Shown: piece by piece, positions 4,085-57,166 of the stretch
Position numbering within the stretch: the first letter of the stretch is position 1
Layout of the letters: every line of letters starts with the position of its first letter
Assembly: GCF_036365525.1 (NCBI RefSeq)
Contig: NC_090416.1
Coordinates: 16,464,945-16,528,944 of the forward strand
Reading direction: 5' to 3'
DNA from: Heterodontus francisci
Lineage: Eukaryota
DNA: 64,000 nucleotides
The notes under the pieces: generated by a model
Seen by the model: only the letters and a program-made list of their open reading frames with translations
Told to the model about the DNA's origin: nothing
Database searches by the model: none
Program-made: the position numbers and the translations under genes

Positions 4085-5310
4085 GGGAACTGAATATTCC
4101 AGGGTATTTGACAGTTTGGAATGACAGGAAGCAAGGAAAAGGAGGTGGTGTAGTTCAGTTAATAAAGGATGAGATCAGTACAGTAGTGAGAAATGATCTT
4201 GGCTCAGAAAATCAAGATGTGGAATCAGTTTGGGTGGAGATATGAAATAGCAAAAATTCATACAGGAGCTGCACTGTGGGACAGAGTATAAATCAAGAAA
4301 TAAGGGGGGGCTTGTAAGGAAAATACTGCAGTAATCCTGGGTAATTTTAATCTTCATATAAATTGGAGTAATCAAACTGGTAAAGTTAGATAGAGGATGA
4401 GTTCATGGAGTGTACTCAGGACAGTTTCTTAGAACAATACATTCTGGAACCAATCCGGGAGCAGGCTATTTTAGACCTGGTAATGTGTAAGGAGACGGAA
4501 TTAATTAATGACCTCTTAGTAAAGGAAGAATAGAAAAGTAGAATATTATTTACATGGAGAGAGACCGCAGAATGCTGCAGTACAGAGGGATCTGGGTGTC
4601 CTTGTACATGAATCACAAAATGTTAACATGCAGGTACAGCAAGTAATTAGGAAGGCAAATGGAATGTTGGTATTTATTGCAATGGGAATGGAGTATAAAA
4701 GTAGGGACATCTTGCTACAACTGTCCCGGGTATTGGTGAGACCGCACCTAGAATACTGCATACAGTTTTGGTCTCCTTATTTAAGGAGGGATATACTTGC
4801 ATTGGAAGCAGTTCAGAGAAGGTTCACTTGGCTGATTCCTGGGATGAAGGGATTGTCTTATTAGGAAAGGTTGAGCAGGTTGGGCCTGTTTAGAGTTTAG
4901 AAGAATGAGAGGTGATCTTATTGAAAAATATAAAGTCCTGAAGGGGCTTAATTGGGTGGATGGTGAGAGGATGTTTCCCCTCGTGGGGGAATCTAGAACT
5001 AGGGGGAACAGTTACAGAATACGGGGTCTCCCATTAAAGACGGAGATGAGGAGGAATTTCTTCTCTGAGGGTCATTAATCTTTGGAATTCTCTTCCCCAG
5101 GGAGCAGTGGAGGCTGGGTCATTGAATATATTCAAGGCTGAGTTGGAGAGTTTTTTGATCTACAAGGGAGTTGAGGGTTATGGTGGGGGGCAGACAGGAA
5201 AGTGGAGATAAGGTCACAATCAGATCATCCATGATCTTATCGAATGGCGGAACAGGCTCGAGGGGCCGAATGGCCTTCTCCTGTTCTTATTTCTTATGCT
5301 TTTATGTTGA
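4085..5310 (+). mobile_element. Second, older CR1 family, internally deleted fragment (also at ~20801-22021, ~37300-38529, ~52540-53762)
   Basis: Endonuclease remnant LNIPGY...GGGV, ORF2 C-terminal remnant VRPHLEYCIQFWSP, and a CR1 3' hairpin/tail aggctcgaggggccgaatggcct...cttatt tcttatg. Confidence 0.85.
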
Positions 5311-5939
5311 AGATATCGTACCTGCTGTATTCAATAGCTGTCCAGGTCTTTAAAGCCCAAAGTGGCCGTAACTGTTCCTATCTGTGCAGAGAGCCCTTGG
5401 CAGTAATATAATATAATGAAAATGGCCTGGCTGAAACTCCCCGGGTCTGGATATCTCAGTACAGATCGGGGAAGGGGTGGTCGGAGTGCTGGAATCTGGG
5501 CCTTCCCAGCAAGTGTCCTGTAAGGGAACTGAATGACCTCAACGAAGGAACGAGTTCACAGAGGGAGATGAGGCTGATGTGATTGCAGTGTGTGCGAACA
5601 AGAGGAGGCCATTCAGCCCTTCGAGACTGCTGTACCATTCCATTAGATCATAGCTGGTCTGTACCTTAACCCCATATACCCTGCCTTAGCTCCATAGTCC
5701 TTGCTGCCCTTACCCAATAAAAATCTATCAACCACAATCTTTATAACTCCAATTTTTAATGAAGTGCATTTCTATAGCGTCTTTCACAACCTCAGGATGT
5801 TCCCAAAGTGCTTCGCAGCCAATGAAATACCTTGAAAAGCAATATTGGGAAATGAAGAATGGGATGTAGAGCAGGAGGAGTTCAGTTCAGTTCTCCTGAG
5901 GGGCCCAGTCCAGATAATGGGTTGTTTTGTTGTAAATGT

Positions 5940-6150
5940 GTGACGTGTCCAAGAATGTAACCGTTTAACGGTGTTTCTCGGATTTCCGTCCTGTTTCTGT
6001 GTGTTTCAGAGCAGGGGAACTGGGCCCAGATGCTGCTGCTCTCTGCTGCTTATCAGACAGTGAACAGGGATGTTTCGGTTCCTCCCCGAGGCTCCTCTCC
6101 CACCCCCTGCAGCGAGTGACCACACCACCTGCACCACATCACAAACAAGA
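5940..6150 (-). promoter_or_regulatory. Candidate IgL 3' enhancer, cluster 1
   Basis: EICE GAGGAACCGAAAC (minus, 6084-6072), E-boxes CAGATG 6027-6032 and CACCTG 6126-6131, RUNX ACCACA 6119-6124 and 6133-6138, CRE-like TGACGT 5941-5946. Confidence 0.55.
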
Positions 6151-7269
6151 CAAAAACAGCATCGATTTGGGTATCAGGATCTAAAATAAGGCTTTCAGAA
6201 CACCGCCCAGGTCCCCTGTGGTTGATGACGAGGGCCTGATCTGAGCTGCATTCAGTGCCATTCTCAGACCCAGTCTGGAACCTGGCTGTTCGGCCATGTG
6301 AATCATCAACATTGTAGATTTAACTGGACTGATAAACGTTTGATGGCCTTTAAGATACTCCTTAAAACCTACCTCTTTGACCGAGCTTTTGGTCACCTGC
6401 TCTAATATCTCCGAATGTGGCTCAGCATTAAACTTTGTTTGCTGACGCCCCTTGCGACGTTTTATTACATTAAAGGCGCCATATAAATGCAGATTGGTGG
6501 TTGTTTGCAGATGACAATTCGTTGAAGACCTTAATAACTAACCGACTGCAGGCCATGAAGTACATCAACTAAAGCCACAATTAAAACTCAAGGCTTCTGA
6601 TGTAAGTACAATACTGAAGGAATACCGCACTGCCGGAGGGGCTATCTGTCACTTGGAATCTGCCCTCTGTTAAAGATACTGCAACCCCCATTTATAAAAG
6701 AGTTGGGGAGTTCTCCCCCACCCCCGTGTCTTGGCTGATATTTATCCTTCAATCAATATCACAAAAAAAGATCACCTGGGTCATTATCTCATTGTTATGT
6801 GTGTGGGATCATGCTGTGCACAAATTGTCTGCTGTGTTTCCTACATTGCAACAGTTGACTAGACTTCAAAAAAAATACTTGGTTGGCTGTAAAGCGCTGT
6901 GGGACATTCTGAAGCTGTGAAAGGAGGCTCACTGTCACCTTCTCAGGGGGACAAATAGTGATGGACAATAAATGGCTGGTCTTACCAGAGATGCCCACAT
7001 CTCGAGAATGAAGAAGTGCAGGTTCTGTCTCTCTGGACGCTGTGATGTCCCCTTGTAAAACATACTGAAACTAAATAGTTCTAAAAACATCTGCATAAAT
7101 ACAGCATCCTCAGACTCGAGATGAGGATTAAACCTACATTTAATACCTCTTTAAGTGCGTGGCCCCTTTAAGGTGTGCTGAGGGACTGGGCTTTTCCAGC
7201 ACTCTCTGTCCATTTACTCTTTGAGGTGATGCAACCGATACTCTCTCCACAGCCGGGGGCTCAGTTAAC

Positions 7270-7870
7270 AGCCCTTCCCTCTTATGGCCCCTAGTTCTGC
7301 TCTCACCCGCAAGTGGAAACGTCTCGACTTATCGAGTCCTTTCATAACCTTAAAGGGCTCCATCAGGTCCTACCCTCCCCCCCTCTCAGTCTTCTCTTTT
7401 CAACCTATCCTGGCAGCCTATCTCAGTACTGGTACCATCCCAGCACATCTTTTCTTGCACCTTCTCCAGTGTCATTTTATAATATGGAGACGGGAACAGT
7501 GCACAGTAATTCCAAGTGTGGTCTAACTGAGGTTCCCTACAAGTTTGACTTAATGTATCTGCTTCTCAATTCTATCCCTCGAGAAATTAACCCCGGTGTT
7601 TGGATTGCTTTTTATATGGCCTTATTCAGCAGCATTGCTGCAGTTACTCTATAACCCTCGATCCACAACCCTATTTAGACTCTTTCTTCCCCACCTCCCC
7701 CTCCCTCCAGGACTAGGTGACCTCATTCATCCTCCCAAAAAGTAGCACCTCACACTTATCCAGACTGACCTTCATTTGCCAATTACACACCCATTCTGCA
7801 TGTCCTGTCATTTGTGATGGACCTAATATTAACTGCAGCCTCCCCCAATTTGGAGTCATCAGCAAACTGA
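7270..7870 (-). mobile_element. Degenerate minus-strand CR1-like fragment (present in all units)
   Basis: Resembles reverse-complemented CR1 ORF2 3' region (tccaagtgtggtctaac; aatttggagtcatcagcaaa is the RC of a FADD-region sequence). Confidence 0.55.
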
Positions 7871-7994
7871 TCCCGTGCCATCCTATCTCTCGGACCGGGA
7901 TAGTGAGCAGTTCTCCCTGGGAGGGACGGTATTTTATTCCAAACAGAGGCTTTTCCTGTAAATCACATACAATGATGGTCTAGTATGGGAGAAA

Positions 7995-8545
7995 CTACAC
8001 TTTAGGATGGGAGGGTTGTTGAGAGGGTGCAGAGGAGGTTTACTGGAATGGTTCCAGGGATGGGGGAATTCTAGTTATAAGGTCAGCCTGGAGAAGCTGG
8101 GATTGTTTTCCTTGGAGCGAAGGAGATTGCAGGGAGATTTAATAGAGGTGGACAAGATTATGACAGATCTGGATAGAGTAGACAAGGAAAAACAGTTCCC
8201 ATTAACTGATGGTACAAGGGCTAGGGGACACATATTGAACGTTTTGGGCAAGGGATACAAGGGGGGGGGGGGGGGGATGTGAGGAAGAATTTATTTATTT
8301 TTAAATGCAGTGAGTGACAATGACCTGGAACTCAGTGCCTACCAGAGTGGTGGAAGCTGGAGACAATGATTTCAGTAACAAACTGGGGTGGGGGGGGGGG
8401 GGGGGGGGGACACTTGAAGGAAATAAATTCGCAGGGGGCCACGGGGGTGCGGAGAGTGGGACTGACTGGATTGCACTACGGGGAGCTGGCACGGACCCGA
8501 GGGGCCGAATAGCCTCCTTCTGTGCCAGAAATGAAATCGAATTCG
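7995..8545 (+). mobile_element. CR1 3'-end fragment (also ~24707-25257, ~41222-41763, ~56483-56995)
   Basis: LEKLGLFSLERRRLQGDLIEV remnant and 3' motif gaggggccgaatagcctcctt. Confidence 0.8.
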
Positions 8546-9051: not shown

Positions 9052-9380
9052 TCAGTCGGAACAAGCGGTGGAGCTGATGGTTTTGAGGAGAGGTGAGCTC
9101 AGAGAGCCGTGGTCCACACTGCAGGTATAGCTGGAGCCCTTATTCCAGGCAGTGGCGGGGACTCTCAGGTAACTGCTCAGGCTGTAGGTTTGATCACTGT
9201 CCGTGGACACAGTGCCTGTGGTCACCCCGCTGTCTGTCTCTTTATCATCCACTCTCCAGAGAACCCGCACGAAACCCGGCTTAAAGCGGCTCACCAGGCA
9301 GGACAGAGTAGCCCATCCCGAGTCTATTTCTTCCGAGGAAGGAGGGAGCAGGAGAACTGATGGTTTCCGATCCTCACTAC
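9052..9380 (-). CDS. IgL constant exon, cluster 1
   Basis: Acceptor cag|GTAGTGAG (phase 1). Encodes SEDRKPSVLLLPPSSEE...ATLSCLV...W...YSLSSYL...YTCSVDH...TACSD*, a C1-set domain with a C-terminal Cys for the heavy-light bond. Confidence 0.96.
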
Positions 9381-10724: not shown

Positions 10725-10761
10725 TCCGTAAACTCAGGGCGGTCCCAGGTCCGAAGGTAAA
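10725..10761 (-). CDS. IgL J segment, cluster 1
   Basis: TTT ACC TTC GGA CCT GGG ACC GCC CTG AGT TTA CGG A|GTAAGT = FTFGPGTALSLR, with the FGxG motif and a consensus donor. Confidence 0.95.
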
Positions 10762-10800
10762 CACAGTGCAGTGTTTTAATGGGACGGGTCACCTAAAACC
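10762..10800 (+). other. 23-RSS of J1
   Basis: CACAGTG, 23-nt spacer, CCTAAAACC (consensus nonamer ACAAAAACC). Confidence 0.92.
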
Positions 10801-11114: not shown

Positions 11115-11142
11115 AGTTTTTGTATTGCCCTGTCTCACTGTG
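11115..11142 (-). other. 12-RSS of V1
   Basis: Minus strand CACAGTG, 12-nt spacer, ACAAAAACT. Confidence 0.95.
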
Positions 11143-11470
11143 TATGTAGCTGCTGAGCCATCCCCGGCAGCACAGTAATAGACGGCGGAGTCTCCCGGTT
11201 CCAAGCTGCCGATGGTCAGAATGTGACTGTTACTGGAGGTGTCTCTGGAAGGTTTAAAACGGTCCGTGAAGCCGGTGCCTCGATAGATGCTACCACTTGG
11301 ATAGTGCTCTAACACCCACACCGGAGCCTCCCCGGGTCTCTGTCGGTACCAGCTCATGTAGTAACTGCCCACATTGCCGTTCTGCATCGCACACTTTAAC
11401 TCGGAGGTCTCACCGGTGGAGACTGGGTCTGAAATTGGGGTCTGATTGAGGACAGGAACCGCCAGGATAC
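11143..11470 (-). CDS. IgL V exon, cluster 1 (1 nt shorter at the 3' end than V2-V4)
   Basis: Acceptor aag|GT. Encodes GILAVPVLNQ...LKC...WYRQRPG...DSAVYYCAAGDGSAAT with both V-set cysteines and the Trp; 328 nt. Confidence 0.95.
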
Positions 11471-11633
11471 CTTCAACACAAAACACAAGAGAGAGGAAAA
11501 CACATTCAGTTTATTGGAGCAAAAAAAGCACACTGAGAAATAAACAGGCCGGGCAACCAAATCCCTTTGCTTCCTAATCTAATGGTTTACAAATGAATAA
11601 TTGAGTAACGTTCTGTTAACATAAGTCTCTCAC

Positions 11634-11682
11634 CTGTTAAATGGAGTAGCAGGGTCCCCAGGAGATACATTACTGCAGCCAT
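11634..11682 (-). CDS. Leader exon, cluster 1
   Basis: ATG GCT GCA GTA ATG TAT CTC CTG ... ACA G|GTGAGA = MAAVMYLLGTLLLHLT(G), a hydrophobic signal peptide with a phase-1 donor. Confidence 0.92.
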
Positions 11683-11787: not shown

Positions 11788-11812
11788 CTATTATATGAAC
11801 CTGTATGCAAAT
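11788..11812 (-). promoter_or_regulatory. V1 promoter: octamer ATTTGCAT (11805-11812) plus TATA-like TATAATA
   Basis: Perfect octamer in light-chain orientation ~125 nt upstream of the ATG, with a TATA-like element just downstream. Confidence 0.88.
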
Positions 11813-13794: not shown

Positions 13795-13931
13795 TAACCC
13801 AATGCACAATGGAAATAAATATTTGGAAATGTTTACTCAGGGACAAATATATTTTTAATAAAGTGTTTTCCCCTGCTCCCCTTGACCCCCTCCCTGTATT
13901 TGCATATTGACTAATATGTAGATACTAGTCT
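13795..13931 (+). promoter_or_regulatory. Inverted paralog of the V promoter (octamer ATTTGCAT 13898-13905), unit A
   Basis: Aligns by eye to the reverse complement of ~11780-11955. Confidence 0.65.
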
Positions 13932-20537: not shown

Positions 20538-22651
20538 CTGTCNNNNNNNNNNNNNNNNNNNNNNNNNNNNNNNNNNNNNNNNNNNNNNNNNNNNNNNNNN
20601 NNNNNNNNNNNNNNNNNNNNNNNNNNNNNNNNNNNNNNNNNNNNNNNNNNNNNNNNNNNNNNNNNNNNNNNNNNNCTCGCTCTATCTATTTGTCTGTCTG
20701 TTCATCTCTATCTATCTGTCTGTCCATCTCTGTCTGTCTGTCTGTCTATCCCTCAGTACTGACCCTTTGACAGTGCGGCACTCCCTCAGTACTGACCCTT
20801 TGGGAACTGAATATTCCAGGGTATTTGACAGTTTGGAATGACAGGAAGCAAGGAAAAGGAGGTGGTGTAGTTCAGTTAATAAAGGATGAGATCAGTACAG
20901 TGGTGAGAAATGATCTTGTATCAGAAAATCAAGATGTGGAATCAGTTTCGGTGGAGATATGAAATAGCAAAAATTCATACTGGAGCTGCACTCTGGAACA
21001 GAGTATAAATCAAGAAATAAGGGGGGCTTGTAAGGAAAATACTGCAGTAATCCTGGGTGATTTTAATCTTCATATAGATTGGAGTAATCAAACTGGTAAA
21101 GTTAGATAGAGGATGAGTTCATGGAGTGTACTCAGGACAGTTTCTTAGAACAATACACTCTGGAACCAATCCGGGAGCAGGATATTTTAGACCTGGTAAT
21201 GAGTAAGGAGACGGAATTAATTAATGACCTCTTAGTAAAGGAAGAATAGAAAAGTAGAATATTATTTACATGGAGAGAGACTGCAGAATGCTGCAGTACA
21301 GAGGGATCTGGGTGTCCTTGTACATGGATCACAAAATGTTAACATGCAGGTTCAGCAAGTAATTAGGAAGAGAAATTGAATGTTGGTATTTATTGCAATG
21401 GGGATGGAGTATAAAAGTAGGGACATCTTGCTACAACTGTACCGGGTATTGGTGAGACCGCACATAGAGTACTGCATACAGTTTTGGTCTCCTTATTTAA
21501 GGAGGGATATACTTGCATTGGAAGCAAGGTTCACTTGGCTGATTCCTGGGATGAAGGGATTGTCTTGTGAGGAAAGGTTGAGAAGGTTGGGCCTGGACTC
21601 ATTGGAGTTTAGAAGAATGAGAGGTGATCTTATTGAAAAGTGTAACGTTCTGAAGGGGTTTGACGGGGTAGATACTGAGAGGATGTTTCCCCTCGTGGGG
21701 GAATCTAGAACTAGGGGGAATAGTTACAGAATACGGGGTCTCCCATTTAAGACGGAGATGAGGAGGAATTTCTTCTCTGAGGGTCATTAATCTTTGGAAT
21801 TCTCTTCCCCAGGGAGCAGTGGAGGCTGGGTCATTGAATATATTCAAGGCTGAGTTGGAGAGTTTTTTGATCTACAAGGGAGTTGAGGGTTATGGTGGGG
21901 GGCAGACAGGAAAGTGGAGATAAGGTCACAATCAGATCATCCATGATCTTATCGAATGGCGGAACAGGCTCGAGGGGCCGAATGGCCTTCTCCTGTTCTT
22001 ATTTCTTATGCTTTTATGTTGAAGATATCGTACCTGCTGTATTCAATAGCTGTCCAGGTCTTTAAAGCCCAAAGTGGCCGTAACTGTTCCTATCTGTGCA
22101 GAGAGCCCTTGGCAGTAATATAATATAATGAAAATGGCCTGGCTGAAACTCCCCGGGTCTGGATATCTCAGTACAGATCGGGGAAGGGGTGGTCGGAGTG
22201 CTGGAATCTGGGCCTTCCCAGCAAGTGTCCTGTAAGGGAACTGAATGACCTCAACGAAGGAACGAGTTCACAGAGGGAGATGAGGCTGATGTGATTGCAG
22301 TGTGTGCGAACAAGAGGAGGCCATTCAGCCCTTCGAGACTGCTGTACCATTCCATTAGATCATAGCTGGTCTGTACCTTAACCCCATATACCCTGCCTTA
22401 GCTCCATAGTCCTTGCTGCCCTTACCCAATAAAAATCTATCAACCACAATCTTTATAACTCCAATTTTTAATGAAGTGCATTTCTATAGCGTCTTTCACA
22501 ACCTCAGGATGTTCCCAAAGTGCTTCGCAGCCAATGAAATACCTTGAAAAGCAATATTGGGAAATGAAGAATGGGATGTAGAGCAGGAGGAGTTCAGTTC
22601 AGTTCTCCTGAGGGGCCCAGTCCAGATAATGGGTTGTTTTGTTGTAAATGT

Positions 22652-22862
22652 GTGACGTGTCCAAGAATGTAACCGTTTAACGGTGTTTCTCGGATTTCCG
22701 TCCTGTTTCTGTGTGTTTCAGAGCAGGGGAACTGGGCCCAGATGCTGCTGCTCTCTGCTGCTTATCAGACAGTGAACAGGGATGTTTCGGTTCCTCCCCG
22801 AGGCTCCTCTCCCACCCCCTGCAGCGAGTGACCACACCACCTGCACCACATCACAAACAAGA
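22652..22862 (-). promoter_or_regulatory. Candidate IgL 3' enhancer, cluster 2
   Basis: Copy of 5940-6150; EICE at 22784-22796. Confidence 0.55.
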
Positions 22863-25428
22863 CAAAAACAGCATCGATTTGGGTATCAGGATCTAAAATA
22901 AGGCTTTCAGAACACCGCCCAGGTCCCCTGTGGTTGATGACGAGGGCCTGATCTGAGCTGCATTCAGTGCCATTCTCAGACCCAGTCTGGAACCTGGCTG
23001 TTCGGCCATGTGAATCATCAACATTGTAGATTTAACTGGACTGATAAACGTTTGATGGCCTTTAAGATACTCCTTAAAACCTACCTCTTTGACCGAGCTT
23101 TTGGTCACCTGCTCTAATATCTCCGAATGTGGCTCAGCATTAAACTTTGTTTGCTGACGCCCCTTGCGACGTTTTATTACATTAAAGGCGCCATATAAAT
23201 GCAGATTGGTGGTTGTTTGCAGATGACAATTCGTTGAAGACCTTAATAACTAACCGACTGCAGGCCATGAAGTACATCAACTAAAGCCACAATTAAAACT
23301 CAAGGCTTCTGATGTAAGTACAATACTGAAGGAATACCGCACTGCCGGAGGGGCTATCTGTCACTTGGAATCTGCCCTCTGTTAAAGATACTGCAACCCC
23401 CATTTATAAAAGAGTTGGGGAGTTCTCCCCCACCCCCGTGTCTTGGCTGATATTTATCCTTCAATCAATATCACAAAAAAAGATCACCTGGGTCATTATC
23501 TCATTGTTATGTGTGTGGGATCATGCTGTGCACAAATTGTCTGCTGTGTTTCCTACATTGCAACAGTTGACTAGACTTCAAAAAAAATACTTGGTTGGCT
23601 GTAAAGCGCTGTGGGACATTCTGAAGCTGTGAAAGGAGGCTCACTGTCACCTTCTCAGGGGGACAAATAGTGATGGACAATAAATGGCTGGTCTTACCAG
23701 AGATGCCCACATCTCGAGAATGAAGAAGTGCAGGTTCTGTCTCTCTGGACGCTGTGATGTCCCCTTGTAAAACATACTGAAACTAAATAGTTCTAAAAAC
23801 ATCTGCATAAATACAGCATCCTCAGACTCGAGATGAGGATTAAACCTACATTTAATACCTCTTTAAGTGCGTGGCCCCTTTAAGGTGTGCTGAGGGACTG
23901 GGCTTTTCCAGCACTCTCTGTCCATTTACTCTTTGAGGTGATGCAACCGATACTCTCTCCACAGCCGGGGGCTCAGTTAACAGCCCTTCCCTCTTATGGC
24001 CCCTAGTTCTGCTCTCACCCGCAAGTGGAAACGTCTCGCCTTATCGAGTCCTTTCATAACCTTAAAGGGCTCCATCAGGTCCTACCCTCCCCCCCTCTCA
24101 GTCTTCTCTTTTCAACCTATCCTGGTAGCCTATCTCAGTACTGGTACCATCCCAGCACATCTTTTCTTGCACCTTCTCCAGTGTCATTTTATAATATGGA
24201 GACGGGAACAGTGCACAGTAATTCCAAGTGTGGTCTAACTGAGGTTCCCTACAAGTTTGACTTAATGTATCTGCTTCTCAATTCTATCCCTCGAGAAATT
24301 AACCCCGGTGTTTGGATTGCTTTTTATATGGCCTTATTCAGCAGCATTGCTGCAGTTACTCTATAACCCTCGATCCACAACCCTATTTAGACTCTTTCTT
24401 CCCCACCTCCCCCTCCCTCCAGGACTAGGTGACCTCATTCATCCTCCCAAAAAGTAGCACCTCACACTTATCCAGACTGACCTTCATTTGCCAATTACAC
24501 ACCCATTCTGCATGTCCTGTCATTTGTGATGGACCTAATATTAACTGCAGCCTCCCCCAATTTGGAGTCATCAGCAAACTGATCCCGTGCCATCCTATCT
24601 CTCGGACCGGGATAGTGAGCAGTTCTCCCTGGGAGGGACGGTATTTTATTCCAAACAGAGGCTTTTCCTGTAAATCACATACAATGATGGTCTAGTATGG
24701 GAGAAACTACACTTTAGGATGGGAGGGTTGTTGAGAGGGTGCAGAGGAGGTTTACTGGAATGGTTCCAGGGATGGGGGAATTCTAGTTATAAGGTCAGCC
24801 TGGAGAAGCTGGGATTGTTTTCCTTGGAGCGAAGGAGATTGCAGGGAGATTTAATAGAGGTGGACAAGATTATGACAGATCTGGATAGAGTAGACAAGGA
24901 AAAACAGTTCCCATTAACTGATGGTACAAGGGCTAGGGGACACATATTGAACGTTTTGGGCAAGGGATACAAGGGGGGGGGGGGGGGGGATGTGAGGAAG
25001 AATTTATTTATTTTTAAATGCAGTGAGTGACAATGACCTGGAACTCAGTGCCTACCAGAGTGGTGGAAGCTGGAGACAATGATTTCAGTAACAAACTGGG
25101 GTGGGGGGGGGGGGGGGGGGGACACTTGAAGGAAATAAATTCGCAGGGGGCCACGGGGGTGCGGAGAGTGGGACTGACTGGATTGCACTACGGGGAGCTG
25201 GCACGGACCCGAGGGGCCGAATAGCCTCCTTCTGTGCCAGAAATGAAATCGAATTCGTTTAAAATAGTTAACTCTGCTTGAATATTTTTTTTTAAATCTG
25301 CCCAAAAGAAAATTCCTCTAATCGCCATTATTCGTACAGTTAACCACTGACTTGCACCAATATCCACCTCAACTCACCCCCACCCCCTCCCCACAAAAAA
25401 TAACAGAGCAATTTGAATTCATGTCATC

Positions 25429-37035: not shown

Positions 37036-39159
37036 CTGTCTATCTCTCCATCTCTCTGTCTATCTATCTGTCTATCTATCTATCTGAGTATCTCTCTATC
37101 GATTTATCTATCTGTCCATATCTATCTATCCATGTCTCTATCTATCTGTCTATCTATCCACCTGTCCATCTCTCTTGCTCTATCTATTTGTCTGTCTGTC
37201 CATCTCTATCTATCCGTCTGTCCATCTCTGTCTGTCTGTCTGTCTATCCCTCAGTACTGACCCTTTGACAGTGCGGCACTCCCTCAGTACTGACCCTTTG
37301 GGAACTGAATATTCCAGGGTATTTGACAGTTTGGAATGACAGGAAGCAAGGAAAAGGAGGTGGTGAAGCTCAGTTAATAAAGGATGAGATCAGTACAGTC
37401 GTGAGAAATGATCTTGGCTCAGAAAATCAAGATGTGGAATCAGTTTGGGTGGAGATATGAAATAGCAAAAATTCATACAGGAGCTGCACTGTCGGACAGA
37501 GTATAAATCAAGAAATCAAGGGGGGGTTTGTAGGAAAATACTGCAGTAATCCTGGGTAATTTTAATCTTCATATAAATTGGAGTAATCAAACTGGTAAAG
37601 TTAGATAGAGGATGAGTTCATGGAGTGTACTCAGGACAGTTTCTTAGAACAATACATTCTGGAACCAACACGGGAGCAGGATATTTTAGACCTGGTAATG
37701 TGTAAGGAGACGGAATTAAATAATGACCTCTTAGTAAAGGAAGAATAGAAAAGCAGAATATTATTTACATGGAGAGAGACTGCAGAATGCTGCAGTACAG
37801 AGGGATCTGGGTGTCCTTGTACATGAATCACAAAATGTTAACATGCATGTTCAGCAAGTAATTAGGAAGAGAAATGGAATGTTGATATTTATTGCAATGG
37901 GGATGGAGTATAAAAGTAGGGACATCTTGCTACAACTGTACCGGGTATTGGTGAGACTGCACCTAGAATACTGCATACAGTTTTGGTCTCCTTATTTAAG
38001 GAGGGATATACTTGCATTGGACGCAGTTCAGAGAAGGTTCACTTGGCTGATTCCTGGGATGAAGGGATTGTCTTATGAGGAAAGGTTGAGCAGGTTGGGC
38101 CTGTACTCATTAGAGTTTAGAAGAATGAGAGGTGATCTTATTGAAATGTGTAAGGTTCTGAAGGGGCTTGACGGGGTAGATACTGAGAGGATGTTTCCCC
38201 TCGTGGGGCAACCTAGAACTAGGGGGAACAGTTACAGAATACGGGGTCTCCCATTTAAGACGGAGATGAGGAGGAATTTCTTCTCTGAGGGTCATTAATC
38301 TTTGGAATTCTCTTCCCCAGGGAGCAGTGGAGGCTGGGTCATTGAATATATTCAAGGCTGAGTTGGAGAGTTTTTTGATCTACAAGGGAGTTGAGGGTTA
38401 TGGTGGGGGGCAGACAGGAAAGTGGAGATAAGGTCACAATCAGATCATCCGTGATCTTATCGAATGGCGGAACAGGCTCGATGGGCCGAATGGCCTTCTC
38501 CTGTTCTTATTTCTTATGCTTTTATGTTGAAGATATCGTACCTGCTGTATTCAATAGCTGTCCAGGTCTTTAAAGCCCAAAGTGGCCGTAACTGTTCCTA
38601 TCTGTGCAGAGACACCTTGGCAGTAATATAATATAATGAAAATGGCCTGGCTGAAACTCCCCGGGTCTGGATATCTCAGTACAGATCGGGGAAGGGGTGG
38701 TGGGAGTGCTGGAATCTGGGCCTTCCCAGCAAGTGTCCTGTAAGGGAACTGAATGACCTCAACGAAGGAACGAGTTCACAGAGGGAGATGAGGCTGATGT
38801 GATTGTAGTGTGTGCGAACAAGAGGAGGCCATTCAGCCCTTCGAGACTGCTGTGCCATTCCATTAGATCATAGCTGGTCTGTACCTTAACCCCATATACC
38901 CTGCTTTAGCTCCATAGTCCTTGCTGCCCTTACCCAATAAAAATCTATCAACCACAATCTTTATAACTCCAATTTTTAATGAAGTGCATTTCTATAGCGT
39001 CTTTCACAACCTCAGGATGTTCCCAAAGTGCTTCGCAGCCAATGAAATACCTTGAAAAGCAATGTTGGGAAATGAAGACTGGGATGTAGAGCAGGAGGAG
39101 TTCAGTTCAGTTCTCCTGAGGGGCCCAGTCCAGATAATGGGTTGTTTTGTTATAAATGT

Positions 39160-39370
39160 GTGACGTGTCCAAGAATGTAACCGTTTAACGGTGTTTCTCG
39201 GATTTCCGTCCTGTTTCTGTGTGTTTCAGAGCAGGGGAACTGGGCCCAGATGCTGCTACTCTCTGCTGCTTATCAGACAGTGAACAGGGATGTTTCGGTT
39301 CCTCCCCGAGGCTCCTCTCCCACCCCCTGCAGCGAGTGACCACACCACCTGCACCACATCACAAACAAGA
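39160..39370 (-). promoter_or_regulatory. Candidate IgL 3' enhancer, cluster 3
   Basis: Copy with all motifs intact; EICE at 39292-39304. Confidence 0.55.
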
Positions 39371-41931
39371 CAAAAACAGCATCGATTTGGGTATCAGGAT
39401 CTAAAATAAGGCTTTCAGAACACCGCCCAGGTCCCCTGTGGTTGATGACGAGGGCCTGATCTGAGCTGCATTCAGTGCCATTCTCAGACCCAGTCTGGAA
39501 CCTGGCTGTTCGGCCATGTGAATCATCAACATTGTGGATTTAACTGGACGGATAAACGTTTGATTGCCTTTAAGATACTCCTTAAAACCTACCTCTTTGA
39601 CCGAGCTTTTGGTCACCTGCTCTAATATCTCCGAATGTGGCTCAGCATTAAACTTTGTTTGCTGACACTCCTTGCGACGTTTTATGACATTAAAGGCGCC
39701 ATATAAATGCAGATTGGTTGTTGTTTGCAAATGACAATTCGTTGAAGACCTTAATAACTAACCGACTGCAGGCCATGAAGTACATCAACTAAAGCCACAA
39801 TTAAAACTCAAGGCTTCTGATGTAAGTACAGTACTGAAGGAATACCGCACTGCCGGAGGGGCTATCTGTCACTTGGAATCTGCCCTCTGTTAAAGATACT
39901 GCAACCCCTATTTAGAAAAAGAGTTGGGAATTCTCCCCCATCCCCGTGTCTTGGCTGATATTTATCCTTCAATCAATATCACAAAAAAAAATCACCTGGG
40001 TCATTATCTCATTGTTATGTGTGTGGGATCATGCTGTGCACAAATTGGCTGCTGTGTTTCCTACATTACAACAGTTGACTAGACTTCAAAAAAAAATACT
40101 TGGTTGGCTGTAAAGCGCTGTGGGACATTCTGAAGCTGTGAAAGGAGGCTCACTGTCACCTTCTCAGGGGGACAACTAGTGATGGACAATAAATGGCTGG
40201 TCTTACCAGAGATGCCCACATCTCGAGAATGAAGAAGTGCAGGTTCTGTCTCTCTGGACGCTGTGATGTCCCCTTGTAAAACATATTGAAACTAAATAGC
40301 ATCCTCAGACTCGAGATGGGGATTAAACCTGCATTTAATACCTCTTTCAGTGCGTGGCCCCTTTAAGGTGTGCTGAGGGACTGGGCTTTTCCAGCACTCT
40401 CTGTCCATTTACTCTTTGAGGTGATGCAACCGATACCCACTCCACAGCCGGAGGCTCAGTTAACAGCCCTTCCCTCTTATGGCCCCTAGTTCTGCTCTCA
40501 CCCGCAAGTGGAAACGTCTCGCCTTATCGAGTCCTTTCATAACCTTAAAGGGCTCCATCAGGTCCTACCCTCCCCCCCTCTCAGTCTTCTCTTTTCAACC
40601 TATCCTGGTAGCCTATCTCAGTACTGGTACCATCCCAGCACATCTTTTCTTGCACCTTCTCCAGTGTCATTTTATAACATGGAGACAGGAACAGTGCACA
40701 GTAATTCCAAGTGTGGTTTAACTGAGGTTCCCTACAAGTTTGACTTAATGTATCTGCTTCTCAATTCTATCCCTCGAGAAATTAACCCCGGTGTTTGGAT
40801 TGCTTTTTATAAGGCCTTATTCAGCAGCATTGCTGCAGTTACTCTATAACCCTCGATCCACAACCCAATTTAGACTCTTTCTTCCCCACCTCCCCCTCCC
40901 TCCAGGACTAGGTGACCTCATTCATCCTCCCAAAAAGTAGCACCTCACACTTATCCATACTGACCTTCATTTGCCAATTACACACCCATTCTGCATGTCA
41001 CTTCATGTCCTGTCATTTGTGATGGACCTAATATTAACTGCAGCCTCCCCCAATTTGGAGTCATCAGCAAACTCTCAAATTGTACCTGGGGCTAGTCTGT
41101 CCCGTGCCATCCCATCTCTCGGACCGGGATAGTGAGCAGTTCTCCCTGGGAGGGACGGTATTTTATTCCAAACAGAGGGTTTTCCTGTAAATCACATACA
41201 ATGATGGTCTAGTATGGGAGAAACTACACTTTAGGATGGGAGGGTTGTTGAGAGGGTGCAGAGGAGGTTGACCGGAATGGTTCCAGGGATGGGGGAATTC
41301 TAGTGATAAGGTCAGCCTGGAGAAGCTGGGATTGTTTTCCTTGGAGCGAAGGAGATTGCAGGGAGATTTAATAGAGGTGGACAAGATTATGACAGATCTG
41401 GATAGAGTAGACAAGGAAAAAGAGTTCCCATTAACTGATGGTACTAGGGCTAGGGGACACAGATTGAACGTTTTGGGCAAGGGATACAAGGGGGGGGGGA
41501 GGATGTGAGGAAGAATTTATTTATTTTTAAATGCAGTGAGTGACAATGACCTGGAACTCACTGCCTACCATGGTGGTGGAAGCTGGAGACAATGATTTCA
41601 GTAACAAACTGGGGTGGGGGGGGGGGACACTTGAAGGAAATAAATTCGCAGGGGGCCACGGGGGTGCGGAGAGTGGGACTGACTGGATTGCACTACGGGG
41701 AGCTGGCACGGACCCGAGGGGCCGAATAGCCTCCTTCTGTGCCAGAAATGAAATCGAATTCGTTTAAAATAGTTAACTCTGCTTGAATATTTTTTTTTAA
41801 ATCTGCCCAAAAGAAAATTCCTCTAATCGCCATTATTCGTACAGTTAACCACTGACTTGCACCAATATCCACCTCAACTCACCCCCAAACCCCCACAAAA
41901 AAATAACAGAGCAATTTGAATTCATGTCATC

Positions 41932-52276: not shown

Positions 52277-54393
52277 NNNNNNNNNNNNNNNNNNNNNNNN
52301 NNNNNNNNNNNNNNNNNNNNNNNNNNNNNNNNNNNNNNNNNNNNNNNNNNNNNNNNNNNNNNNNNNNNNNNNNNNNNNNNNNNNNNNNNNNNNNNNNNNN
52401 NNNNNNNNNNNNNCTTGCTCTATCTATTTGTCTGTCTGTCCATCTCTATCTATCTGTCTGTCCATCTCTGTCTGTCTGTCTGTCTATCCCTCAGTACTGA
52501 CCCTTTGACAGTGCGGCACTCCCTCAGTACTGACCCTTTGGGAACTGAATATTCCAGGGTATTTGACAGTTTGGAATGACAGGAAGCAAGGAAAAGGAGG
52601 TGGTGTAGTTCAGTTAATAAAGGATGAGATCAGTACAGTGGTGAGAAATGATCTTGTATCAGAAAATCAAGATGTGGAATCAGTTTGGGTGGAGATATGA
52701 AATAGCATAAATTCATACAGTAGCTGCACTGTAAGACAGAGTATAAATCAAGAAATAAGGGGGGCTTGTAAGGAAAATACTGCAGTAATCCTGGGTGATT
52801 TTAATCTTCATATAAATTGGAGTAATCAAACTGGTAAAGTTAGATAGAGGATGAGTTCATGGAGTGTACTCAGGACAGTTTCTTAGAACAATACATTCTG
52901 GAACCAATCCGGGAGCAGGATATTTTAGACCTGGTAATGTGCAAGGAGACGGAATTAATTAATGACCTCTTAGTAAAGGAAGAATAGAAAAGCAGAATAT
53001 TATTTACATGGAGAGAGACTGCAGAATGCTGCAGTACAGAGGGATCTGGGTGTCCTTGTACATGGATCACAAAATGTTAACGTGCAGGTACAGCAAGTAA
53101 TTAGGAAGAGAAATGGAATGTTTGTATTTATTGCAATAGGAATGGAGTATAAAAGTAGGGACATCTTGCTACAGCTGTACCGGGTATTGGTGAGACCGCA
53201 CCTAGAATACTGCATGCAGTTTTGGTCTCCTTATTTAAGGAGGGATATACTTGCATTGGAAGCAGTTCAGAGAAGGTTCACTTGGCTGATTCCTGGGATG
53301 AAGGGATTGTCTGATAAGGAAAGGTTGAGCAGGTTGGGCCTGTTTGGAGTTTAGAAGAATGAGAGGTGATCTTATTGAAAAGTGTAACGTTCTGAAGGGG
53401 TTTGACGGGGTAGATACTGAGAGGATGTTTCCCCTCATGGGGGAATCTAGAACTAGGGGGAACAGTTACAGAATACGGGGTCTCCCATTTAAGACGGAGA
53501 TGAGGAGGAATTTCTTCTCTGAGGGTCATTAATCTTTGGAATTCTCTTCCCCAGGGAGCAGTGGAGGCTGGGTCATTGAATATATTCAAGGCTGAGTTGG
53601 AGAGTTTTTTGATCTACAGGGGAGTTGAGGGTTATGGTGGGGGGCAGACAGGAAAGTGGAGATAAGGTCACAATCAGATCATCCATGATCTTATCGAATG
53701 GCAGAACAGTCTCGAGGGGCCGAATGGCCTTCTCCTGTTCTTATTTCTTATGCTTTTATGTTGAAGATATCGTACCTGCTGTATTCAATAGCTGTCCAGG
53801 TCTTTAAAGCCCAAAGTGGCCGTAACTGTTCCTATCTGTGCAGAGACCCCTTGGCAGTAATATAATATAATGAAAATGGCCTGGCTGAAACTCCCCGGGT
53901 CTGGATATCTCAGTACAGATCGGGGAAGGGGTGGTGGGAGTGCTGGAATCTGGGCCTTCCCAGCAAGTGTCCTGTAAGGGAACTGAATGACCTCAACGAA
54001 GGAACGAGTTCACAGAGGGAGATGAGGCTGATGTGATTGCAGTGTGTGCGAACAAGAGGAGGCCATTCAGCCCTTCGAGACTGCTGTACCATTCCATTAG
54101 ATCATAGCTGGTCTGTACCTTAACCCCATATACCCTGCCTTAGCTCCATAGTCCTTGCTGCCCTTACCCAATAAAAATCTATCAACCACAATCTTTATAA
54201 CTCCAATTTTTAATGAAGTGCATTTCTATAGCGTCTTTCACAACCTCAGGATGTTCCCAATGTGCTTCGCAGCCAATGAAATACCTTGAAAAGCAATATT
54301 GGGAAATGAAGAATGGGATGTAGAGCAGGAGGAGTTCAGTTCAGTTCTCCTGAGGGGCCCAGTCCAGATAATGGGTTGTTTTGTTGTAAATGT

Positions 54394-54604
54394 GTGACGT
54401 GTCCAAGAATGTAACCGTTTAACAGTGTTTCTCGGATTTCCGTCCTGTTTCTGTGTGTTTCAGAGCAGGGGAACTGGGCCCAGATGCTACTACTCTCTGC
54501 TGCTTATCAGACAGTGAACAGGGAGGTTTCGGTTCCTCCCCGGGGCTCCTCTCCCACCCCCTGCAGCGAGTGACCACACCACCTGCACCACATCACAAAC
54601 AAGA
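54394..54604 (-). promoter_or_regulatory. Candidate IgL 3' enhancer, cluster 4
   Basis: Copy with all motifs intact; EICE at 54526-54538. Confidence 0.55.
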
Positions 54605-57166
54605 CAAAAACAGCATCGATTTGGGTATCAGGATCTAAAATAAGGCTTTCAGAACACCGCCCAGGTCCCCTGTGGTTGATGACGAGGGCCTGATCTGAGC
54701 TGCATTCAGTGCCATTCTCAGACCCAGTCTGGAACCTGGCTGTTCGGCCATGTGAATCATCAACATTGTAGATTTAACTGGACTGATAAACGTTTGATGG
54801 CCTTTAAGATACTCCTTAAAACCTACCTCTTTGACCGAGCTTTTGGTCACCTGCTCTAATATCTCCGAATGTGGCTCAGCATTAAACTTTGTTTGCTGAC
54901 GCCCCTTGCGACGTTTTATTACATTAAAGGCGCCATATAAATGCAGATTGGTGGTTGTTTGCAGATGACAATTCGTTGAAGACCTTAATAACTAACCGAC
55001 TGCAGGCCATGAAGTACATCAACTAAAGCCACAATTAAAACTCAAGGCTTCTGATGTAAGTACAATACTGAAGGAATACCGCACTGCCGGAGGGGCTATC
55101 TGTCACTTGGAATCTGCCCTCTGTTAAAGATACTGCAACCCCCATTTATAAAAGAGTTGGGGAGTTCTCCCCCACCCCCGTGTCTTGGCTGATATTTATC
55201 CTTCAATCAATATCACAAAAAAAGATCACCTGGGTCATTATCTCATTGTTATGTGTGTGGGATCATGCTGTGCACAAATTGTCTGCTGTGTTTCCTACAT
55301 TGCAACATTTGACTAGACTTCAAAAAAAATACTTGGTTGGCTGTAAAGCGCTGTGGGACATTCTGAAGCTGTGAAAGGAGGCTCACTGTCACCTTCTCAG
55401 GGGGACAAATAGTGATGGACAATAAATGGCTGGTCTTACCAGAGATGCCCACATCTCGAGAATGAAGAAGTGCAGGTTCTGTCTCTCTGGACGCTGTGAT
55501 GTCCCCTTGTAAAACATACTGAAACTAAATAGTTCTAAAAACATCTGCATAAATACAGCATCCTCAGACTCGAGATGAGGATTAAACCTACATTTAATAC
55601 CTCTTTAAGTGCGTGGCCCCTTTAAGGTGTGCTGAGGGACTGGGCTTTTCCAGCACTCTCCGTCCATTTACTCTTTGAGGTGATGCAACCGATACTCTCT
55701 CCACAGCCGGGGGCTCAGTTAACAGCCCTTCCCTCTTATGGCCCCTAGTTCTGCTCTCACCCGCAAGTGGAAACGTCTCGCCTTATCGAGTCCTTTCATA
55801 ACCTTAAAGGGCTCCATCAGGTCCTACCCTCCCTCCCTCTCAGTCTTCTCTTTTCAACCTATCCTGGTAGCCTATCTCAGTACTGGTACCATCCCAGCAC
55901 ATCTTTTCTTGCACCTTCTCCAGTGTCATTTTATAATATGGAGACGGGAACAGTGCACAGTAATTCCAAGTGTGGTCTAACTGAGGTTCCCTACAAGTTT
56001 GACTTAATGTATCTGCTTCTCAATTCTATCCCTCGAGAAATTAACCCCGGTGTTTGGATTGCTTTTTATATGGCCTTATTCAGCAGCATTGCTGCAGTTA
56101 CTCTGTAACCCTCGATCCACAACCCTATTTAGACTCTTTCTTCCCCACCTCCCCCTCCCTCCAGGACTAGGTGACCTCATTCATCCTCCCAAAAAGTAGC
56201 ACCTCACACTTATCCATACTGACCTTCATTTGCCAATTACACACCCATTCTGCATGTCACTTCATGTCCTGTCATTTGTGATGGACCTAATATTAACTGC
56301 AGCCTCCCCCAATTTGGAGTCATCAGCAAGCTCTCAAATTGTACCTGGGGCTAGTCTGTCCCGTGCCATCCCATCTCTCGGACCGGGATAGTGAGCAGTT
56401 CTCCCTGGGAGGGACGGTATTTTATTCCAAACAGAGGCTTTTCCTGTAAATCACATACAATGATGGTCTAGTATGGGAGAAACTACACTTTAGGATGGGA
56501 GGGTTGTTGAGAGTGTGCAGAGGAGGTTTACCGGAATGGTTCCAGGGATGGGGGAATTCTAGTTATAAGGTCAGCCTGGAGAAGCTGGGATTGTTTTCCT
56601 TGGAGCGAAGGAGATTGCAGGGAGATTTGATAGAGGTGGACAAGATTATGACAGATCTGGATAGAGTAGACAAGGAAAAACAGTTCCCATTAACTGATGG
56701 TACAAGGGCTAGGAGACACAGATTGAACGTTTTGGGCAAGAGATACAGGGCAGAGGGGGGTGGGGGGGATGTGAGGAAGAAATTATTTATTTTTAAATGC
56801 AGTGAGTGACAATGACCTGGAACTCACTGCCTACCAGAGTGGTGGAAGCGGGAGACAATGATTTCAGTAACACTTGAAGGAAATAAATTCGCAGGGGGCC
56901 ACGGGGGAGTGGGACTGACTGGATTGCACTACGGGGAGCTGTCATGGATCCGAGGGGCCGAATAACCTCCTTCTGCGCCAGAAATAAAATCGAAGACGTT
57001 TAAAATAGTTAACTCTGCTTGAATATTTTTTATTAAATCTGCCCAAAAGAAAAATCCTCAAATCGCCAATATTCGTACAGTTAACCACTGACTTGCACCA
57101 ATATCCACCTCAACTCACCCCCCCACCCCCACAAAAAATAACAGAGCAATTTGAATTCATGTCATC

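Follow-up and report, generated by a model that had tools for sequence, protein, structure and literature searches.

A 477-bp intergenic block as a candidate B-cell enhancer of sigma-2 light-chain clusters in the horn shark

Sigma-2 genes in the window and in an older family

The window, i.e., the whole stretch of 64,000 nucleotides of Heterodontus francisci DNA which we analysed, holds four units of a tandem array, each about 16.5 kb long; the units are 96-98% identical. On its minus strand every unit carries a leader, a V segment with a 12-spacer RSS, a J segment with a 23-spacer RSS and a C exon. The gene parts are:

9052..9380, minus strand: sigma-2 / type I IgL constant exon, unit 1; the J-C splice at 9380 is observed
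10725..10800, minus strand: J segment with 23-spacer RSS
11115..11682, minus strand: leader, V exon and 12-spacer RSS; unrearranged, frame open
11790..11812, minus strand: V promoter with octamer ATTTGCAT and a TATA-like box

Proteins labelled Heterodontus francisci match the C domain at 99-100% identity, those of other sharks and rays at 68-82%. Judged by sequence the light-chain genes of the window are sigma-2 (type I / NS5 / sigma-cart), neither kappa nor lambda; sigma-2 is the present name of this isotype (PMC5985310 Table 2; PMC5192425). The split V-J arrangement, with a 12-spacer at V and a 23-spacer at J, is that of the sigma-2 clusters of the literature, and sigma-2 is reported as the top-expressed isotype of the horn shark (PMC5985310, PMC5192425, PMC2435157). 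The complete array spans C46:16.27-16.88 Mb and has 37 sigma-2 C exons; the unit stretch 4527-8409 is present at both of its ends. For the nurse shark four NS5 loci are reported (PMC2435157). Two minor features accompany the array. A partial, inverted copy of the V promoter lies at 13800-13930 of the window, has a second octamer at 13898 and is also present at both array ends, and a V-like fragment (72.5% over 120 bp) is located just past the upper end (C46:16884862-16884981).

A second sigma-2 family, the older clusters, is found at C46:15.04-15.20 Mb. Around the same octamer its promoter is different. Within the family one V-J pair is duplicated, the octamer is missing from two V genes, the RSS spacer of one V measures 11 bp, and some C exons have no V. 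Adjoining these clusters, at C46:14.81-15.07 Mb, are weak matches to C1-set Ig domains (35-38%).

A bounded, locus-specific block

An earlier note, made from the letters of this DNA, had described a non-repetitive island of about 200 bp between TE fragments and had proposed it as a 3' enhancer of the kappa/lambda style. The island is larger, extending over 477 bp with sharp edges:

5873..6349, unstranded: candidate enhancer block, copy 1, 477 bp; at its edges lie the breakpoints of the inversion that sets it apart from the older clusters
22585..23061, unstranded: block copy 2, by offset from copy 1
39093..39569, unstranded: block copy 3, by offset from copy 1
54327..54803, unstranded: block copy 4, by offset from copy 1
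6348..6491, plus strand: high-copy repeat tail, presumably LINE-like, directly next to the block towards C; matches the flank on that side of the older clusters in register (71-76% identity)

The description as non-repetitive DNA between TE fragments was right. Two DNA searches of the genome returned 46 block candidates each (40 scored), all at the sigma-2 locus, and a repeat control searched in the same way gave 1352 candidates over many contigs. This speaks against the block being a common transposable element. Both flanks are very high-copy repeats (thousands to >100,000 summed contig depth). Pattern search, blastn and nhmmer over the extracted DNA account for all 46 copies: 38 reside in the array and eight among the older clusters about 1 Mb off (C46:15.04-15.25 Mb). 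Three older copies (C46:15036912, 15123072 and 15136047) possess an extra segment of 17-23 bp at block position 6001-6002 which is missing from the array; it contains a further ACCACA and, in two copies, GTGAAAC, an IRF-like half site.

Motifs within the block

Every motif listed in the earlier note, i.e., GAGGAACCGAAAC, CAGATG, CACCTG, two ACCACA, AGGGGAACT and TGACGT, is present where it had been placed:

6072..6084, minus strand: Ets-IRF composite GAGGAACCGAAAC (PU box plus IRF half site); GAGGAACTGAAA in three older copies
6027..6032, unstranded: E-box CAGATG, 39 bp 3' of the composite on the sense strand of the gene; intact in 46/46 copies
6119..6138, unstranded: RUNX-type ACCACA (6119), E2A-type CACCTG (6126), RUNX-type ACCACA (6133); E-box intact in 46/46, each RUNX site in 44/46
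5941..5946, plus strand: TGACGT, a CRE-like half site at chance level (14% of shuffles)
6013..6021, plus strand: second Ets-like AGGGGAACT, without IRF half site

The composite conforms to the EICE pattern GGAANNGAAA with a purine-rich PU-box flank. This predicted element is intact in 42 of the 46 copies (36/38 in the array, 6/8 among the older ones). Among the motifs of the block the composite alone is unusual. Of 20,000 dinucleotide-shuffled versions of the block, 40 had a PU-box composite, 461 a plain composite, 10,717 an E2A box, 7,586 CAGATG, 2,752 two or more RUNX sites and 2,876 TGACGT. The kappa 3' enhancer contains a CRE site. No NF-kB or MEF2 pattern matches within 5873-6349. Since the block was delimited by homology and not by motifs, the composite inside it is a fair test: its frequency is 0.2% by shuffling and 5 in 700 among real tiles from other Ig loci. 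At the scale of a complete unit 500 shuffles gave a plain composite in 337, a composite together with E-box and RUNX in nine, and a PU-box composite with both in none, all with a motif set chosen post hoc.

Composite words are also carried by repeats. Common repeats of the genome (L058, L127; C8:116973804), the context of which we take to be LINE-like, contain GAGGAACTGAAA or near matches. A composite close to a shark Ig gene should therefore be checked for being part of a repeat. A second cluster of composite, E-box and two RUNX sites at C46:15110820 turned out to be a common repeat.

Retention beside two families, inversion and position

When one array unit is aligned with one older unit three long alignments of high identity are left: the block (95.6%), C with the proximal 3'UTR (96.2%) and J-V-leader (90%). 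The remainder consists of repeat fragments at 70-84% and two pieces of 39-48 bp. No alignment between these two units was obtained for the promoter, the distal 3'UTR or the remaining J-C intron. Independently of any motif, the idea of an enhancer thus gains support: unique DNA was apparently kept beside two divergent gene families, and in both orientations.

In the older clusters the block runs the other way with respect to the gene. The repeat tail next to it towards C matches the array's flank on that side, in register, at 71-76% in five of the six older copies tested. A flank in the same register next to an inverted block indicates that the block turned round without changing its place. By distance the array copy is nested within the older set, being 0.030-0.103 from its members compared with 0.036-0.107 among the older copies themselves. 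We read the array block as derived from within the older family and then amplified along with the unit.

The array has 38 blocks for 37 C exons, with a block at both ends. Within an array unit 2.7 kb separate the block from the C stop and 10.9 kb separate it from the following leader. Of the eight older copies, six follow a C on its 3' side at a distance of 5.5-6.8 kb and precede the next V or J by 2.4-6.1 kb; one is found 2.8 kb upstream of a V, no C being present within 35 kb, and another is an orphan. Two C exons of the older family lack a block on their 3' side. The distances between block and V leader range from 2.4 to 10.9 kb. A non-coding element in both orientations and at varied distances has an enhancer-like trait, here by natural variation and not by assay. 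The designation as a 3' enhancer is open to doubt: the block is intergenic, has copies at both array ends and tracks the V promoter side in the older family. Given this intergenic placement and the C exons without a 3' copy, a 3' enhancer is not established, and reading the block as an upstream element fits at least as well.

Variation and gene conversion

Over 5940-6150 the four window copies are 100, 100, 99.5 and 97.6% identical, i.e., they differ at 0, 0, 1 and 5 bases, and copy 2 shows zero differences over 1.4 kb. It is correct that the motifs are intact in all four copies. That substitutions fall between motifs, as had been claimed, is uninformative; with so few differences the window copies say nothing about constraint.

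The older copies are more diverse. Across five of them the core is less variable than the flanks (31/211 versus 139/603 columns, p=0.010); the difference from the rest of the block is not significant (31/211 versus 51/266, p=0.22). Motif columns vary like other columns of the core (9/44 versus 30/167, p=0.73; this comparison leaves out window copy 4 and two older copies that are nearly identical). Among array copies the density of variable sites is 0.114 in the core and 0.11 in the flanks. The composite is broken in four of 46 copies by three different changes, and two array copies with a broken composite flank genes which retain octamer and RSS. Among the copies with a broken composite are L095, L096, the one at C46:15136047 and the orphan. 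Copies beside promoter-less or missing genes hold nine of the ten motif changes, a post hoc observation; for copies beside octamer-bearing genes the comparison is 1/132 versus 43/1269 (p=0.069, likewise post hoc, one gene having an 11-bp RSS spacer).

Several alleles are shared across the two families. Array copy L092 has four alleles at 5969-5980 in common with the orphan copy, array copy L096 has four at 6077-6092 in common with the copies at 15.17/15.18 Mb, and 14 of the 43 minor array alleles are also found in an older copy. Such allele runs point to gene conversion, which alone could keep the identity of the block high. Consequently, high identity by itself is not selection.

Comparison with known enhancers

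In the lambda enhancers of human, mouse (E2-4/E3-1) and chicken a second E-box lies, by eye, 35-45 bp 3' of the composite (PMC3972084 Fig S4). The block shares with them an E-box, a composite of the PU.1-IRF4 type and a second E-box 39 bp on. It differs from them in that its upstream E-box is 48 bp off (about 90 bp in lambda), RUNX-type sites are added, NF-kB and MEF2 patterns are absent and the genes are sigma-2. In lambda enhancers NF-kB and MEF2 both matter (PMC3972084). The likeness to the mouse kappa 3' enhancer is confined to motifs. GAGGAACTGAAA of three older copies is identical with it over 12 bases, followed by CATCTG, and the array composite has one change at an N position; CATCTG follows the composite after 13 bp in the mouse and after 39 bp in the block (PMC3972084 Fig S5). 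Beyond motifs no likeness is seen by eye, and the block is situated at a sigma-2 locus and not clearly 3' of C. Of the proposed kappa/lambda style, then, the order E-box/composite/E-box stands as in lambda; the isotype of the genes and the missing NF-kB and MEF2 patterns do not agree with it. On paper the block is laid out like the core of a lambda enhancer, yet we do not class it as a kappa or lambda enhancer. The further proposal that this light-chain enhancer logic dates to the jawed-vertebrate ancestor is not supported.

We found no description of an Ig enhancer from a cartilaginous fish or of the block itself in a search which missed most subscription papers, and a prior description is possible. 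Bengten and colleagues reportedly located enhancers inside IgL clusters of the Atlantic cod, a precedent for fish IgL clusters from a teleost and for another isotype. The sigma-2 literature, as far as its text is available, describes promoters only, and the available text of PMC5192425 does not contain the word enhancer (PMC5985310, PMC5192425, PMC2435157). The accessible parts of PMC9936319, PMC3308330 and PMC13320880 have no bearing on the block.

Other immunoglobulin loci and other species

We searched 500 kb around genes which we take to be of lambda, kappa, sigma and IgH type, labels in part drawn from our tree. No homolog of the block emerged with blastn and an nhmmer profile (best E=0.41). 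A site in the flank of a kappa gene resembling the mouse kappa 3' enhancer proved to be a repeat. The 500 kb of other Ig loci contain ten strong RGGAANNGAAAM sites, two of which have an E2A box within 100 bp upstream (78-79 bp). Both are single-copy, lie on the sense strand and have CAGGTG 78-79 bp upstream: GAGGAACTGAAAC at C34:835758 is 11.5 kb, and GGGGAAGTGAAAC at C34:15414347 is 9.5 kb, 5' of the V of a divergent single IgL gene. The V domains of these two genes are 46-50% identical to those of the window. In the V tree they are placed outside the lambda/sigma/IgH group (support 91/91, unstarred); the C tree gives no placement. Local alignments of the block with the two sites are not convincing, their scores being reached by 11, 19 and 193 of 300 shuffles. 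The C34 sites, spotted post hoc, may be a lead towards a shared upstream design.

A comparison with contigs from five of 24 sequencing runs showed that those of two other organisms cover the C exon at about 86% identity. None of the contigs from other species covers 5860-6340 at 80% likeness (X7, X12) or 6044-6287 (X15), a gap which is uninformative.

Interpretation

We consider it likely, with a probability of about 0.58, that the 477-bp block is a B-cell enhancer of the sigma-2 light-chain clusters. A Spi-family Ets protein (PU.1/Spi) and IRF4/8 would jointly occupy the composite, E proteins and RUNX would bind on either side of it and aid the Spi/IRF pair, and the block would activate the nearest or a neighbouring octamer V promoter in B cells. 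We infer binding, enhancer activity, B-cell specificity, the neighbour served and any role in rearrangement or hypermutation from the layout of the DNA. A skate has spi1, spib and spid (PMC13670022).

Several observations argue for the enhancer. The block is unique, with all 46 candidates at one locus, and is among the few segments aligning between array and older unit. Chosen by homology, it holds a PU-box composite. In five of six copies it is inverted against a flank in the same register, and its core in older copies is less variable than the flanks. The order of E-boxes and composite is that of lambda, GAGGAACTGAAA is as in the mouse kappa 3' enhancer, and two sites with composite and E2A box lie 5' of V at the divergent C34 IgL genes. 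Against it one has to set that motif columns are not spared, that the composite is broken in some copies, among them array copies flanking genes with octamer and RSS, and that array core and flanks are equally variable and the core does not differ significantly from the rest of the block. Further, alleles are shared in a conversion-like manner, NF-kB and MEF2 patterns are absent, a nearby common repeat has composite, E-box and two RUNX sites as well, no alignable homolog exists in the 500 kb of other Ig loci, and the motif set was chosen post hoc.

A rival reading is neutral unique DNA, in which a local inversion set the edges, gene conversion keeps the families alike and the composite is there by chance. 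The allele runs of L092 and L096, the 14/43 shared minor alleles, the lack of constraint at motif level and the ease with which a plain composite arises in shuffled units (337/500) agree with such a history. Yet it leaves unexplained why the block, and not the promoter, the 3'UTR or other unique stretches, stayed alike while the flank drifted to 71-76%. Further, the chance of a PU-box composite in such a block is 0.2-0.7%, and nine of ten motif changes fall on copies whose neighbouring gene lacks a promoter or is missing (p=0.069, post hoc). We regard a purely neutral block as rather unlikely.

Distinctly less probable is another cis-acting role, e.g., targeting of hypermutation or rearrangement, a cluster boundary or a myeloid-type PU.1/IRF8 element, in place of a V-promoter enhancer. 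An intergenic block with a copy at both array ends would suit such a role. A loose CTCF-like run is altered in three older copies, which counts against it. In Ig enhancers of chicken and mammals, motifs of the types found here direct hypermutation, and in a DT40 assay Ig enhancers with E-box and PU.1-IRF4 sites did so with negligible effect on transcription (PMC3972084). Enhancer and targeting roles overlap, however, so that this would in part be the same answer.

The block is a real, locus-specific and bounded candidate, better supported than by the motif list alone. A more far-reaching version of the enhancer reading, which we think unlikely, would be that an old upstream E-box plus Ets-IRF enhancer of sigma-2 light-chain genes has become unalignable between three loci on two contigs, and that the founder of the array, ahead of its expansion, acquired an inverted copy of this enhancer from the older clusters. 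If so, the founder's uptake of the flipped copy would explain the dominance of sigma-2 in horn sharks with their 37-gene array. The block would be the first Ig enhancer described from a cartilaginous fish, and would help to study the way in which a single cluster out of dozens is turned on and mutated in shark B cells. The block bears on the question why these cells activate only a few of their many Ig clusters; rare promoter-enhancer complexes have been proposed in a paper whose available text names no shark enhancer (PMC2435157). The 477 bp are a bounded test piece with natural controls, i.e., copies with intact composite, with broken composite and in inverted orientation.

RNA at the orphan copy

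Contigs from two RNA-type runs (one sample; the type of run is guessed) enter the block at 6007-6009. There lies:

6008..6009, plus strand: AG of a splice acceptor; in the orphan copy (C46:15.25 Mb) spliced RNA makes use of it

One may ask whether the block is an exon of a non-coding RNA, with the acceptor at 6009 and an AATAAA just beyond the right edge in older copies. We consider this very improbable: the unique upstream parts with their GT donors favour it, but the leaders of the spliced RNAs come from one copy only, the orphan, whose composite is broken, array copies face the opposite way without AATAAA, the kept block reaches 137 bp upstream of the acceptor, and an Rfam search of the block gave no match at E<=1. 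By eye no coding role is apparent, open frames past the acceptor having at most 57 codons.

One RNA contig continues into array-type flank and is without two of the orphan alleles. The contigs have 5' parts with a single map position each, 0.6 and 1.6 kb upstream of the orphan copy, where they stop at GT donors. No Ig gene was found near this copy (C46:15250496-15252470). As the spliced contigs map there, the orphan block with its broken composite has become an exon of two alternatively spliced RNAs with introns of about 0.6 and 1.6 kb.
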